From NCBI GenBank assembly GCA_046757165.1, contig JBHHXT010000014.1:1-49628 (forward strand): DNA of 49,628 bases. The letters run 5' to 3'. The notes under the pieces are model-generated. The model saw nothing but the letters and a program-made list of their open reading frames with translations, made no database searches and was not told where the DNA came from. Positions 18,788 through 28,551 of the stretch are shown here, in pieces (position 1 is the stretch's first letter; every line of letters begins with the position of its first letter). The stretch is from a bacterium (lineage in GTDB: Bacteria > Zhuqueibacterota > Zhuqueibacteria > Oceanimicrobiales > Oceanimicrobiaceae). The position numbers were made by a program, and so were the translations under genes.

Positions 18788-19681
18788 TTACTCGAAAACT
18801 TCGACAAAGCTCCTGACGAGTTTGCCATCAAACATCTTGTCTTCATTACTCCTGAGAAACTCCAGAGCATTTTCGATGGAGTTGAGGCGACGGTGCGGCC
18901 GGTCGGAAGTCCATGCATCAAAAAAATCCGTCACCGTGATGATACGCGAATATTCGTGGATGGCGTCTCCTTGCAGCTTGTTCGGATACCCGCAGCCGTC
19001 AAACCGTTCATGGTGCTGGACCGAGGCAACGGATGAGATGCCGTCAAAGAAGCAATTTCGTACCAAATGTGTGAACCCTTTGGTGGTGTGTTCCTTGACT
19101 TTTTCGAACTCCTTGTCTTCGAGCCTCGACTCTTTGTTGACAATTCTCTCGTCGATGAACTCCATGCCAAAATCATGCAGCAAGGCAGAAATAGCCAGGC
19201 TCAACAGTTTTCTGTCGTGGAAGTTGAGTTTGCACCCCAAGAAAATCGAGTAGACGGCCACGTACACCGAGTGTTGGTACAAGTAGTCGTCCTGCCGTTT
19301 CAGCTCCATGAGATGCATCGGGCGGCGCAAGGTATTTCTGATGTGTACGAGAATCGACTCCGCCAGCGAGATTAAATCGTTTCTTGCCTGCGAGGCCTTG
19401 AGCGTTTCCTCAGATTTGAGGTTGCGAAAGATATTCTTTAAGAGGTACGGCGCTGAAACCAGAAGACGGTCCGATGTGTAATTAAACCTGCCTGCTATCT
19501 CCGTATCATCCTCATTCAGAACAAAAATACTGCGATACCCCTTTTCCTGGAAATAGTCAAGAAACCGTGGCGTTAGGGTCACGCCTTTGCGCAGCAGCAA
19601 ATTTCCCGTGGCATTGTAAAGATTTTGACCCAAACGCTTTCCGACCAACGCAGGAGAAAGTTGCTCAATAATGACGCTCAA
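18788..19681 (-). CDS. HD-GYP domain protein (HDFGM variant)
   Basis: YLYQHS, ALLHDFGM, QHHERFDGCGYP and D.FDAWTSDRPHR. Confidence 0.9.
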   Translation of the reverse strand: MSVIIEQLSPALVGKRLGQNLYNATGNLLLRKGVTLTPRFLDYFQEKGYRSIFVLNEDDTEIAGRFNYTSDRLLVSAPYLLKNIFRNLKSEETLKASQARNDLISLAESILVHIRNTLRRPMHLMELKRQDDYLYQHSVYVAVYSIFLGCKLNFHDRKLLSLAISALLHDFGMEFIDERIVNKESRLEDKEFEKVKEHTTKGFTHLVRNCFFDGISSVASVQHHERFDGCGYPNKLQGDAIHEYSRIITVTDFFDAWTSDRPHRRLNSIENALEFLRSNEDKMFDGKLVRSFVEVFE

Positions 19682-19725
19682 TGCTCGCCTCCTCTTTTGG
19701 AGTAGTCATTTTGTCTGTAGACGGG

Positions 19726-20628
19726 TCAATTACTGTCAAAAAACCTCAAGAAATGTTTCACCATTCTTGGTGAGAATTGCCTGCCGTCTTGGTCATTGAT
19801 GTATTGCACTGCCTCATCTATGGTATGGAGCCGCCGGTAGGGCCGGTCTGATGTGTAGGCATCAAAGAAGTCAGCCACACTGATGATCTGGGAGTATTCG
19901 TGAATGTCGTCGCCCACTTTGCCTTCCGGGTAGCCAGCGCCGTCGTACCGTTCATGATGTTGCATGCAGACCACAGCTATCAACCCCTTGATGAAGCAAT
20001 TGCGCGCCAGGTGCTTGAAGCCGAGGATGGTGTGTTTGCGCATTTCCATGGTCTCTTTTTCGTCAAGCTCGTCTGGCTTGTAGAGAATCTCGTCATCGAC
20101 ATAGGTCATGCCAAAATCGTGCAACAGGGCAGCAAGCGCCAGGTCAAAGAGTTTGAGCTGGTGATACTGCGCGCTCTGCCCGATCAGAATGGCGTAGGCC
20201 GCAACATTGATTGCATGCTGATAAATATAGTCATTTTGCCGCTTCAGGTCGAGGATATCGGGTGGGTTGTGCATGCGGATGTTCACTTCCCGAATCAGGG
20301 CGTCTGCCAGAACGCTCAGGTCCTTTTTGGCATTGGAAATCTGGATCTTGTCCCGCCCTTTCAGCCTTTCATAGATGTTTCTGAGTGTAATTGGAGCGCT
20401 AGCCAGCAACTTCTCTGAGATAACATGGCCTTGAACCTTGGAGATCGCGGAAGGGGGCCCATTCAGCGCATAGACGCTCCTGTATCCGACCTCCTTGATT
20501 TTGGTGAGATGGAATTCCTTGATTTCTGCGCCCAATCCTAATAGCAAGTTCCCCTTTGGATTGTAAAGCTTTTGCCCGAGTCTTTGGCCAACAAGCTTTG
20601 AGTCCAACTCCAGAATTTGCAAATTCAT
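19726..20628 (-). CDS. HD-GYP domain protein (HDFGM variant), paralog of the adjacent gene
   Basis: YIYQHA, ALLHDFGM, QHHERYDGAGYP and DFFDAYTSDRPYR. Confidence 0.9.
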   Translation of the reverse strand: MNLQILELDSKLVGQRLGQKLYNPKGNLLLGLGAEIKEFHLTKIKEVGYRSVYALNGPPSAISKVQGHVISEKLLASAPITLRNIYERLKGRDKIQISNAKKDLSVLADALIREVNIRMHNPPDILDLKRQNDYIYQHAINVAAYAILIGQSAQYHQLKLFDLALAALLHDFGMTYVDDEILYKPDELDEKETMEMRKHTILGFKHLARNCFIKGLIAVVCMQHHERYDGAGYPEGKVGDDIHEYSQIISVADFFDAYTSDRPYRRLHTIDEAVQYINDQDGRQFSPRMVKHFLRFFDSN

Positions 20629-25588: not shown

Positions 25589-25625
25589 TCCTATAACCTC
25601 AGATTAATGCTTGCCCCTAACTGCG

Positions 25626-27263
25626 TTAACGCTTCAGTTGTGTCACTTCACTGAGTATTTGGTCAGTCACGGTAATCACCCTGGCATTGGCTTGGAACGC
25701 TCGCTGGGCGATGATCATCTCCGTGAACTGGCGGGCCAAATCGACATTCGAGGCTTCCAACGTGCCGGAAAGAACCGTGGCCGAAATATCCGCTTGTGCT
25801 TTGCCGATCGCAGGGATGCCCGTGCTGGCCGAAAGCGCATAGGCATTGTTTCCTATATGCAGCAAGCCTTCGGGATTGTTTATCTTGGCGATGGCTAGCT
25901 GAGCGATCAAGCGGGTTTTACCGTTGGTGAAGGATCCCATGATCTGACCCGCGGAGTCGACCGAAAACGAGCTGAGCTGTCCTTGCGATTGTCCATCCTG
26001 GTAGGGCAAAAGGATGGACGAGTTTCCCGCAAACTGCGTCACGCCGCTGAACTTGGTCACGTTTTCAAAGTCGAGGTTAATGCTGACGTCGGTGGCCCCG
26101 TTGCCTGGATCGAACACCAGCAGGGATTCGCCGTCGTCGTAGATAATCGTATCGAGACTGCCGTCGCTCGCAAAAGCAATGGTTCCGGTGTTCCCTTCAC
26201 TGATGGTTTCGTCGCCTGCGAGGGTCATTTCGAACGTCCATTCTCGAGTGTTTTCAGTCTTGGTGAACGTGAGGTTCATCGTGTGTTTGGCGCCCAGACT
26301 GTCAAAGATTTCGATCGAGGTGGAGGTCTCGGGGGAGAAGCCTTCCGCCGTGTTGACGAAACCAGGGAGCGTGATCGCGCCCGTGTTGCCAGCAGCCTCC
26401 GATAGCGTAATGGTAAGCTCACTTTCACCGTAATTGGCATCGGTCAAAACGATTTTGCCGTCGACAAGAGTGACTGTTCCATCGAACGCGCCCTCGATTT
26501 GGTTGAGCAAGTCATCAACCGTGGTGCCGTCGTTGCCGGCGCCATACGTGAAGGTGGCACTGACGCTTGTACCATCGAAGTCGGCACCGGTTATGTTGAT
26601 GACATCCCCATCCACCAAAGATGTGGTGACCTGATCGAGATCGTTTATTTCTGTGGTCGCGACTGCCGCCGTGCCGCCTCCGGTGGAGAATGCTCGACTG
26701 GCGGTCCACTGCTCCTGCACCGGCTCTGCGTCCGCATCCAGGTTGCCCGCGATGGCGACGTTTCGAGTCGCAATGGCCGGCGAGATAACCGAAGCGTCAA
26801 AGACAATGTCGCCGAGGGGTGCGGTCTGGGGCAGCTCACCGTCCTGTTCGGCTGTCCAGCCCTGGACTGTCGCACCATTGGCCGTGACCAGCCGCCCGTT
26901 CCCGTCAAAGTGTAGATTGCCCGCCCGGGTGTAGAGCTGCCGGTTCCCATCACTGAGGACCAGAAAGCCCTCTCCGTCGATGCCGATATCCGTTACTTTT
27001 CCGGTAGTCTGCAAGATGCCTTGCGAAAAATCTCGCTCGATGGTGCCGGTGCGCACACCCAATCCGACCAGAACGGCATTTCGCGAACCGCCGGAGGCCG
27101 ATTGACTGGAGCTGCGCAGCAACTGGCTGAGCTCCTCTGAAAAGTGGATCCTGGAGGTCTTGAACCCGATTGTGTTGATATTGGCAATATTGTTGCCGAT
27201 CACGTCCATCTTCAACTGATTGTTCGCCAACCCTGAGACGCCAGAAAACAAAGCTCGCATCAT
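25626..27263 (-). CDS. flgE: Hook protein FlgE
   Basis: SGVSGL..NQ..MDVIGNNIANINT.GFK, YTRAGN and LEASNVDLA.QFTEMI.AQRAFQANAR. Includes an inserted domain. Confidence 0.96.
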   Translation of the reverse strand: MMRALFSGVSGLANNQLKMDVIGNNIANINTIGFKTSRIHFSEELSQLLRSSSQSASGGSRNAVLVGLGVRTGTIERDFSQGILQTTGKVTDIGIDGEGFLVLSDGNRQLYTRAGNLHFDGNGRLVTANGATVQGWTAEQDGELPQTAPLGDIVFDASVISPAIATRNVAIAGNLDADAEPVQEQWTASRAFSTGGGTAAVATTEINDLDQVTTSLVDGDVINITGADFDGTSVSATFTYGAGNDGTTVDDLLNQIEGAFDGTVTLVDGKIVLTDANYGESELTITLSEAAGNTGAITLPGFVNTAEGFSPETSTSIEIFDSLGAKHTMNLTFTKTENTREWTFEMTLAGDETISEGNTGTIAFASDGSLDTIIYDDGESLLVFDPGNGATDVSINLDFENVTKFSGVTQFAGNSSILLPYQDGQSQGQLSSFSVDSAGQIMGSFTNGKTRLIAQLAIAKINNPEGLLHIGNNAYALSASTGIPAIGKAQADISATVLSGTLEASNVDLARQFTEMIIAQRAFQANARVITVTDQILSEVTQLKR

Positions 27264-27301
27264 GATTAGGGTACTCCAAAGTTAAATGGTTTGTGGGTGT
27301 T

Positions 27302-27354
27302 CCACTGGTTCAATCATTCAGCAGTGGCGGACCTCCCATTCAGGGTCCGGTCCG
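27302..27354 (-). ncRNA. Candidate cis-regulatory double-hairpin RNA in the flgE leader
   Basis: Minus strand CGGACC-GGA-CCC-UGAAU-GGG-A-GGUCCG immediately followed by CCACUG-CUGAAUGAUUGAAC-CAGUGG. There is no U-tail, so it is not a terminator. Confidence 0.5.
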
Positions 27355-27387: not shown

Positions 27388-27816
27388 CTAAGGAGGAGGC
27401 TGGGGAGCGGTCAAAATCAACGCACTATCGATATTTGTGAAGACTTTGCCCCGATCCCCGCTCTGGCTATTCATCGCCGTGATGACCGTTCGATTCTCTA
27501 CGCTGATCACAAATGCCAGGTCGCCCATTACCAACAACGATTCTTTGCCCCCCATCTCCGCGATCTTTTCCACCGCCTGAGTCAGATTCGTCATGTCCTG
27601 ATCACTCAAGACAATCTTCCTGGACGCCAGCCGATCGACCGCATGGGCGGAGAATTTCACCGGATAACTGGCCTTCGAAATCTTATTCCTCAGAATGGCG
27701 GCAAACTCAGGGAGCTCCGCCTGCGGAAGGTGCGGAAAGCGACCGGGCACTACACCAGGCGTTGTGGATACCGTGTGCGGATTCTGGACATTGTGTCTTA
27801 TTTCTTCGATGGACAT
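27388..27816 (-). CDS. Flagellar operon protein, TIGR02530-like
   Basis: VKFSAHA..RL..R.I, KESL....D.AFVISV.NRTVITAM and VFTNIDSA. Sits at the family's usual position between flgD and flgE. Confidence 0.88.
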   Translation of the reverse strand: MSIEEIRHNVQNPHTVSTTPGVVPGRFPHLPQAELPEFAAILRNKISKASYPVKFSAHAVDRLASRKIVLSDQDMTNLTQAVEKIAEMGGKESLLVMGDLAFVISVENRTVITAMNSQSGDRGKVFTNIDSALILTAPQPPP

Positions 27817-27831
27817 GGGGGTATCCTACTC

Positions 27832-28551
27832 TTACTCTGCGGTTGAATCCTCGTCAGTTGCATCCTCGTTGCTTGCATCCTCAGCGCTACTGATTTCGAT
27901 GACGTCTGTGAGATTGATTTCGACTTCGCCCACTCTCAATATCGCATTGCCATCTTGATAACGCACGCTGCTGATAGTGCCAAACACAAACTCTTCCGCC
28001 GCCAGCGGGTTGCCGTCGAAATCCTGCGCCGTGACGGAGAAGTGATATTTGCCAACCGGCACCTCCTGGCCATCATCGTCTTTGCCATCCCAGCTATAGG
28101 TCTGGTTCCCTTGGAGTTGCTCTTGCAGGGAGATCGTCCGAACAACGTTGCCATCCTCGTCTCGGATTTGAATTCGGACGCTTGCAGCCGGTTCAGATAA
28201 GCGGTAGTGGATTTCGGTGTCCTGGCCTTCGATATGGCTGATAGCATCACCGGCGGCCCGTACCTGCTTGCCGATCAACGTGGTTGCCATGGTATTGTTG
28301 ATGGCCTGATTCAGCAATAAATCGAGCTGGATGCTGTTTTGCAGGAGGCTGCTGATGTTTTGCAATTGCTCAACGGAGCTGAACTGTGCCAACTGCACCG
28401 CAAATTCGTCCGCCTGGAGCGGATCCGAGGGGTCCTGGTTGCGTAGTTGTGTCACCAGGATCTTGAGAAAGTCGTCCTTCCCCAGAATCGCCGAATTATT
28501 GCCAAGCAGGTTTTGCGGGTTGGGCTGGCCCAGAGCTGTAATTTCATCCAT
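27832..28551 (-). CDS. flgD: Hook cap FlgD
   Basis: LGKDDFLKILVTQLRNQDP, QLAQFSSVEQL and WDGKD..G. Confidence 0.96.
   Translation of the reverse strand: MDEITALGQPNPQNLLGNNSAILGKDDFLKILVTQLRNQDPSDPLQADEFAVQLAQFSSVEQLQNISSLLQNSIQLDLLLNQAINNTMATTLIGKQVRAAGDAISHIEGQDTEIHYRLSEPAASVRIQIRDEDGNVVRTISLQEQLQGNQTYSWDGKDDDGQEVPVGKYHFSVTAQDFDGNPLAAEEFVFGTISSVRYQDGNAILRVGEVEINLTDVIEISSAEDASNEDATDEDSTAE

Follow-up and report, generated by a model that had tools for sequence, protein, structure and literature searches.

A bacterial flagellum requires far more copies of the hook subunit than of the proteins encoded next to it on the same mRNA. In the autoregulation of ribosomal-protein operons, one of the encoded proteins recognises a structured intercistronic leader and so sets downstream translation. 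The known flagellar RNA regulators, CsrA-FliW and FlbT, act on flagellin according to the accessible portions of two reports (PMC4894983; PMC3930126). Both have traits in common with the locus described here. The flagellin leaders of the CsrA-FliW circuit also carry two adjacent hairpins with GGA above a flagellar gene (PMC4894983, in the part available), and the Caulobacter system likewise combines a dedicated flagellar RNA-binding protein, FlbT, with the leader of an axial subunit, the flagellin 5' UTR, whose translation it sets (PMC3930126, likewise in part); the corresponding binding is only predicted in our case. In addition, Termite-flg (RF01729) and flg-Rhizobiales (RF01736) are candidate cis RNAs named for flagellar genes and given as of unknown function in the portion at hand of PMC2864571, and an automated 77-nt candidate from Roseburia, HMP2_4503, was located near flgE and flbD (Fremin and Bhatt, 2021; PMC8040213, in excerpt).

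In this study, we analysed a 49,628-nt stretch of bacterial DNA (contig JBHHXT010000014.1, hereafter the window) that contains a minus-strand flagellar operon with the gene order fliK, flgD, a 142-aa ORF, flgE and motA. Between the 142-aa ORF, a TIGR02530 gene, and flgE lies a double hairpin, occupying positions 27354-27302 of the minus strand, which is one copy of a covarying RNA motif. The features of this region are:

27832 to 28551, minus strand: flgD, hook capping protein
27388 to 27816, minus strand: TIGR02530 / PF12611 flagellar operon protein of 142 aa, the proposed RNA reader
27328 to 27354, minus strand: P1 hairpin, made of a lower stem, a GGA/A internal loop, an upper stem and a variable apical loop
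27354 to 27328, minus strand, P1 piece by piece: CGGACC (27354-27349), GGA (27348-27346), CCC, UGAAU loop, GGG, A (27334), GGUCCG (27333-27328)
27302 to 27327, minus strand: P2 hairpin, with a 12-nt loop holding three GA at period 4 (27320-27309)
27327 to 27322 and 27307 to 27302, minus strand: P2 stem, CCACUG paired with CAGUGG, abutting P1
27325 to 27333, minus strand: P1 3' strand and P1/P2 junction, the candidate anti-Shine-Dalgarno (anti-SD) strand
27270 to 27278, minus strand: flgE Shine-Dalgarno (SD) region and its 3' flank, with GGAG at 27277-27274
25626 to 27263, minus strand: flgE, flagellar hook protein of 545 aa, the proposed regulated gene

The ORF upstream of the element matches TIGR02530 with 87.5 bits at a curated cut-off of 83.2. 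The flgE product exceeds the cut-off of the FlgEFG subfamily, and FlgE models are its best matches but stay below their own cut-offs. Unlike in many relatives, flbD is missing between flgE and motA, where a gap of 37 nt (25589-25625) is found.

The first-pass annotation had described both hairpins from the letters of the window, and their sequence and geometry are as it gave them, on the minus strand. The same goes for the 124-nt gap between the TIGR02530 gene and flgE and for the distance of 38 nt between the element and the flgE ATG; the upstream stop codon lies 33 nt above the element. It had also reported the lack of a U-tract, and indeed no U tract follows the element and the minus strand contains no terminator-like site. 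The 53-nt element folds on the sense strand with -20.5 kcal/mol (z -3.1; 1 of 200 shuffles equally good), compared to a z of -3.7 for its opposite strand and of only -0.2 for the entire 124-nt gap. For P2 the annotation was right about the hairpin and wrong about a 14-nt loop: the conserved loop counts 12 nt, and in the window copy it is closed by a C-C mismatch where relatives pair, the sole such break among 73 aligned rows. No further copy was detected in the genome of the window by a covariance model, and none was seen above flgF or flgG by inspection; P2-like hairpins number 6 there versus 7 and 2 in shuffled genomes.

To follow the element outside the window, we used 130 TIGR02530 loci (50 from the own phylum plus the 80 top-ranking ones among 546 that a genome-wide scan had confirmed), a few of which represent the same genome counted twice. 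A descriptor located both hairpins at 96 loci; of the other 34, a covariance model recovers 30 at E<=1, with E<0.02 for 27. Three of the four loci missed by the model retain a P1-like hairpin, as seen by eye or in an unfiltered search, while the fourth, a second TIGR02530-flgE copy (L116), has no element at all. The RNA family, which is missing from Rfam, spans Bacillota, Geobacter relatives, Actinomycetota, Armatimonadota, Eremiobacterota, Bacteroidota/Ignavibacteria, Fibrobacteraceae, Poribacteria, Hydrogenedentota, Zixibacteria and others; Roseburia is also a carrier (L107). In two loci (L042 and L049) the element sits nearer the upstream stop and scores 41-47 bits.

Covariation was assessed on a sequence-only alignment of 73 rows, comprising the window and 72 of the 96 descriptor loci after near-duplicates and long-loop forms had been dropped. 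Paired cells amount to 90% versus 70% in shuffled alignments and two-sided changes to 267 versus 85, values reached by 0 of 500 shuffles; such changes occur at 15 of 16 pairs, and controls with slid partners are just 38-54% paired. Since the 73 rows had been picked with a pairing filter, the test was redone with the GA triplet of the P2 loop, present in 115 of the 130 loci, as only anchor. Here, pairs 1-6 of P2 are formed in 83-94% of 109 distinct sequences versus 38-80% after shuffling, and the background level is reached by pair 8. On the sense strand, G-U pairs are far more numerous than C-A pairs (11 versus 2 among the pair types listed for pair 1), which points to an RNA on the mRNA strand. 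RNAalifold recovers P2 and not P1 from the 73 rows, in which the 3' side of P1 is partly misregistered.

The conserved feature of P2 is a 12-nt (NGAN)3 loop with three GA at period 4. In P1 it is the internal loop, whose 5' strand reads GGA in 67, GGC in 17 and GGU in 5 of 89 cases, opposite an A (GGH/A). A kink-turn consists of a 3-nt bulge followed by tandem G-A and A-G pairs; this candidate was rejected for P1, as the third loop base varies between A, C and U and the covarying upper-stem register leaves no tandem GA. Thermoleophilia, Armatimonadota and some others retain P1 alone. P1 is thus kept where P2 is lost and therefore forms the core of the element. The apical loop of P1 varies freely in sequence and length across loci, which bears on the CUGAAUG motif that the annotation had noticed at both apical loops and emphasised. 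The repeat exists in the window copy, but not as a conserved feature: UGAAU occurs within 60 nt above P2 in only 5 of 115 loci, never within the P1 loop, and CUGAAUG opens 8 of the 109 distinct P2 loops. Given the free variation of the P1 loop, the repetition is a coincidence of the window copy, and we rejected it as the signal. Two places in the 6.1 Mb genome have a pair of CUGAAUG at a spacing of 10-30 nt.

Two expectations of the annotation are thereby strongly supported by covariation in orthologous spacers from many phyla, namely that similar hairpins follow TIGR02530 genes, including those of Firmicutes, and that the element is a conserved cis-element. Of the checks it had proposed, the comparison of spacers and the query of Rfam agree with this: the TIGR02530-to-flgE spacers contain a covarying structure that none of the 500 shuffles equals, and no Rfam family matches. 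With the covariance models of Rfam 15 there were 0 matches at gathering threshold in the whole window, only sR33 at E<=10 (12.7 bits versus 37 needed), and none for the element in seven homologous loci. RF01729 and RF01736 accordingly gave no gathering or E-value match, and their alignment rows that were compared lack the GGH/A and (NGAN)3 loops (PMC2864571, in part). HMP2_4503 may be the same motif, judged by description; it stands among candidates overlapping coding sequence, in one family, and the accessible text proposes no function or partner for it (PMC8040213). No published description of the element was found in the literature searched, some supplementary files aside, and the main texts of PMC11109978, PMC5737381 and PMC8632094 contain no flg motif.

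The RNA is strictly co-distributed with TIGR02530, and not with CsrA. In the own phylum, TIGR02530 occurs in 52 of 167 genomes and a model match in 50 of 151, with all 50 matches lying directly below the gene and many of them being training rows; in three flagellated kin without the gene, flgD adjoins flgE and no element is present. A held-out sample of 151 Bacillota genomes contains flgD in 113, TIGR02530 in 72 and a model match in 71 genomes, with 70 genomes having both gene and match. The two gene-only genomes show weak local matches (24 and 17 bits), and the lone RNA-only match (G189) is weak, without P2 loop and in a non-flagellar genome. None of the 41 flgD-positive Bacillota genomes without TIGR02530 has the element at the flgD-flgE junction, where the 40 measurable gaps range from -1 to 172 nt. 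Even a loose P1 pattern occurs in only 6 of 43 gene-less junctions, the three kin included (0.22 when shuffled), versus 139 of 148 with the gene. In a further group (G168), flgD is present in 97 of 151 genomes; the seven with TIGR02530 are the seven with the RNA, as opposed to 0 of 90 flgD-positive genomes without the gene. In another (G171), the gene occurs in 11 of 151 genomes; the RNA is matched genome-wide in 8, and the other 3 keep P1 locally, P1-only copies being overlooked by genome-wide model searches. Weak matches in two non-flagellar genomes (G463 and G453) were rejected, and two genomes with flgD and without the gene (G013 and G042) are uninformative owing to an orphan flgD and a contig end. 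The gene and the main RNA copy are adjacent, so that one deletion removes both. On a quickly built FlgE tree with 91 Bacillota rows, 8 joint changes are required as against 29.7 when shuffled, but well-supported branches force only 1 of them. Two genomes without TIGR02530 (L162 and L169) have a 52-nt flgD-flgE gap with a different G+C hairpin, either a remnant or unrelated.

Copies of the RNA are also found away from the gene, the bulk of them in one Actinomycetota clade. In 8 Actinomycetota genomes the RNA stands ahead of flgG, and in G568 it precedes both tandem flgE genes, only the first of which has TIGR02530 before it. Five genomes have it embedded in a conserved small ORF (about 64-81 aa) that precedes an HTH gene and flgB. 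TIGR02530 is present in every genome with detached copies other than G325, where a contig end interrupts flgE. The RNA therefore accompanies rod and hook genes without requiring TIGR02530 next to it, which is what one would expect if it were read in trans. The small-ORF copy L222:1421-1615 (minus strand) has matching ORFs in L217, L218, L219 and L225. These Actinomycetota-group ORFs follow fliS-like or TPR genes and precede an HTH_17 gene and flgB; the one tested had no Pfam match, and a decoy or a leader peptide is possible. G490 has an orphan copy (L243:1011-1066, minus strand) in the 3' trailer that follows an EF-hand gene; a terminator-like hairpin comes after this copy.

The TIGR02530 protein is predicted to have a RelE/colicin-like (BECR) fold, as judged from a structure model of residues 36-135 (149-row alignment, pLDDT 86.8). 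The model shows two helices in the core, a meander of three strands accompanied by a short N-terminal strand, and a further strand at the C-terminus. In a VIA comparison, the first 16 places go without exception to RelE/ParE-superfamily or Cami1 chains, the best with a weak Z of 6.2 and an rmsd of 2.6 over 68 residues, below the Z 8 guide of the tool; colicin E5-type and CdiA domains match lower (Z 3.2-4.0), and a full-length model gives similar structural matches. With the same protein, Foldseek returned nothing at E<=0.001, a sequence search of solved structures gave no match and an Atlas search gave only TIGR02530-type clusters. DUF4258 scores 13.3 bits on the window protein, below its gathering threshold of 25, and weakly matches 87 of 149 members at E<=1 (best E 0.0017); RegB is matched very weakly. 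Invariant residues are S56, R62, T113, I129 and D130, with H58 conserved in 148 and R66 in 143 of 149 sequences, and H58, R62 and R66 are near-invariant on helix 57-65. The net charge of the core is just about +1. DUF4258 has been placed in the colicin-like BECR group, with an active-site His and Lys/Arg on the pre-alpha helix (preprint 10.64898/2026.08.28.747851, in the part available). Similar to these ribonucleases, the predicted topology of TIGR02530 places two helices before a small beta sheet with His and Arg on the first helix, and the BECR-like model with H58, R62 and R66 on the matching helix thus makes an RNA-contacting role plausible, catalytic or not. Different from them, TIGR02530 belongs to a housekeeping flagellar operon in which no antitoxin is evident, and its fold is extended by a conserved strand at the C-terminus; neither flagella nor PF12611 are mentioned in the main text of the preprint. 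Our result suggests, as far as a predicted model goes, that flagellar assembly has domesticated the fold of a toxin nuclease.

Across 89 distinct loci, the start codon follows the element at a median distance of 29 nt, and the upstream stop precedes it by a median of 9 nt. The duplex of the element with its own SD window is more stable than with swapped ones (-12.1 versus -10.9 +/- 0.2 kcal/mol, n=80; reached in 0 of 2000 permutations, also GC-matched), whereas three coding windows show no own-duplex excess. This excess persists after thinning to 54, 41 and 22 protein clusters (z -5.5, -5.3 and -3.0) and is located to the P1 3' strand and linker. In the family of the window, GGUCCUCCA stands opposite UGGAGGACC, and in L047 GCCCUCCA stands opposite UGGAGGGC; the anti-SD of the window copy is weak (-6.9 kcal/mol), and several family members reach 8-9 pairs. 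GAGGUC, the complement of GACCUC in P1, is present in 13 of 30 Bacillota SDs with the gene and in 0 of 40 without, a comparison confounded by kinship, and the mean duplex energy with SDs of gene-positive and gene-negative Bacillota does not differ (p=0.28). P1 and P2 dominate the computed ensemble with median pair probabilities of 0.95 and 0.98. A competing state is better by >1 kcal/mol in only 24 of 80 loci, and forcing the hairpins frees the SD by >0.2 in only 4 of 80, without gain in the window (0.48 to 0.43), all of which speaks against a general switch. The anti-SD covariation lends modest support to a role of the RNA element in translation, one of several roles that the annotation had named.

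A covarying sense-strand RNA that is co-distributed with TIGR02530 and has excess complementarity between its junction and the SD flank can be read in several ways. We tentatively propose that TIGR02530 binds the element and that the pair sets translation of the next axial gene (flgE; flgG in some lineages), a reading that we consider possible though a little short of probable. The annotation had not considered this protein, which among the candidates is the likeliest to read the RNA. The protein, with its probable BECR domain, would dock on the GGH/A internal loop of P1, and the (NGAN)3 loop of P2 would be a dispensable second protein site. Binding would keep P1 folded and bury the anti-SD strand, freeing the flgE ribosome site, and the output of the many-copy hook subunit would be raised above that of its operon neighbours. 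Activation, as the direction of regulation, is the least certain step. FlbT represses, in the portion at hand of PMC3930126, and it also differs in belonging to another protein family, whereas here hook and rod genes within a polycistron are concerned, together with a strongly covarying two-hairpin RNA. Compared to ribosomal-protein leaders, which likewise would have an operon-encoded reader of an intercistronic leader, the element matches no Rfam leader family and its reader would be a dedicated regulator instead of a structural subunit. By analogy, the proposed system would work like FlbT or a ribosomal-protein leader and belong to neither. The RNA and its partner with a toxin-like fold may thus be an unrecognised control on hook amount, which would give a testable job to a flagellar gene family listed as 'function unknown' in the part available of a 2026 survey (PMC13277936).

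The same predicted fold could also mean that TIGR02530 is an active, domesticated endoribonuclease that cuts the element, for instance in the P2 loop, and so releases a stable flgE message or uncouples flgD. Its near-invariant His and both near-invariant Arg lie on the helix where colicin-like BECR nucleases, whose characterised members mostly cut tRNA, have active-site residues (10.64898/2026.08.28.747851, in part), and the weak DUF4258 and very weak RegB matches go in the same direction. Yet, P2 and its loop are missing or altered in several lineages that retain the conserved residues of the protein, a cut site would not need anti-SD covariation, and no immunity gene is evident in the locus of the window, so that we regard cutting as fairly unlikely. 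The RNA might as well act without TIGR02530, as a stabilising or processing structure for host nucleases or the ribosome or for another ligand, while gene and RNA form one cassette and the protein serves, for example, as an export chaperone. Their adjacency, the few firmly independent losses in the FlgE tree and the short distance between the upstream stop and the element (median 9 nt), which is often less than a ribosome covers, would all fit. On the other hand, none of the 41 + 3 + 90 flagellated genomes without the gene has kept the RNA, the loose P1 pattern being at background there; detached copies occur only in gene-positive genomes, one broken assembly aside, and the invariant loop bases imply a specific ligand. 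We therefore judge independent action unlikely.

That the element is a CsrA site, bringing the hook gene into the FliW-CsrA circuit, is suggested by the GGA of P1 and by the csrA gene in the genome of the window, but is very improbable. The GGA is placed in an internal loop and not in the apical ANGGA loop of the consensus (PMC4894983, in the portion available) and is replaced by GGC or GGU in 22 of 89 cases, and the distribution follows TIGR02530: CsrA is found in 33 of 41 RNA-negative flagellated Bacillota, and 9 RNA-positive genomes have no CsrA match. A terminator, a REP-like DNA palindrome or a chance fold is hardly credible. Although both strands fold equally well, a terminator is contradicted by the missing U tract, a REP-like palindrome by the single copy in the genome of the window and by the excess of G-U over C-A on the sense strand, and a chance fold is refuted by the strong covariation across phyla.

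Extending the proposal that TIGR02530 reads the RNA, a domesticated toxin-derived RNase-fold regulator could serve a small axial regulon (hook, distal rod), flipping the anti-SD switch or cutting, and be titrated in one Actinomycetota clade by the small-ORF decoy upstream of the flgB operon. This wider picture is doubtful as a whole; if true, the stoichiometry of rod and hook would be set by a post-transcriptional layer of wide distribution.

Some loci depart from the usual arrangement. In two Selenomonadales loci (L058:4282-4336 and L090:4268-4323), flgD, TIGR02530 and the RNA are followed by flbD, with no flgE. The separate TIGR02530-flgE cassettes of Selenomonadales have a degenerate element in L143 and none in L116, to which repeat assembly could contribute. 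An unverified 'bacteriophage' scaffold (L226) carries a bacterial-type flagellar operon with TIGR02530 and an element-like spacer and is probably bacterial DNA. It was the sole match in a tblastn search of a phage collection, which did not recover gp136 of phage G, annotated as TIGR02530 in the accessible part of a preprint. In a divergent TIGR02530 clade (L196-L203; 60-73 bits) with an altered C-terminal motif, the TIGR02530 frame runs into P1, the RNA scores are weaker and there is no CsrA match. In the window itself, two tandem HD-GYP-like ORFs, recognised by motifs seen by eye, are located at 18788-20628 between fliR and flhB, within the flagellar operon.
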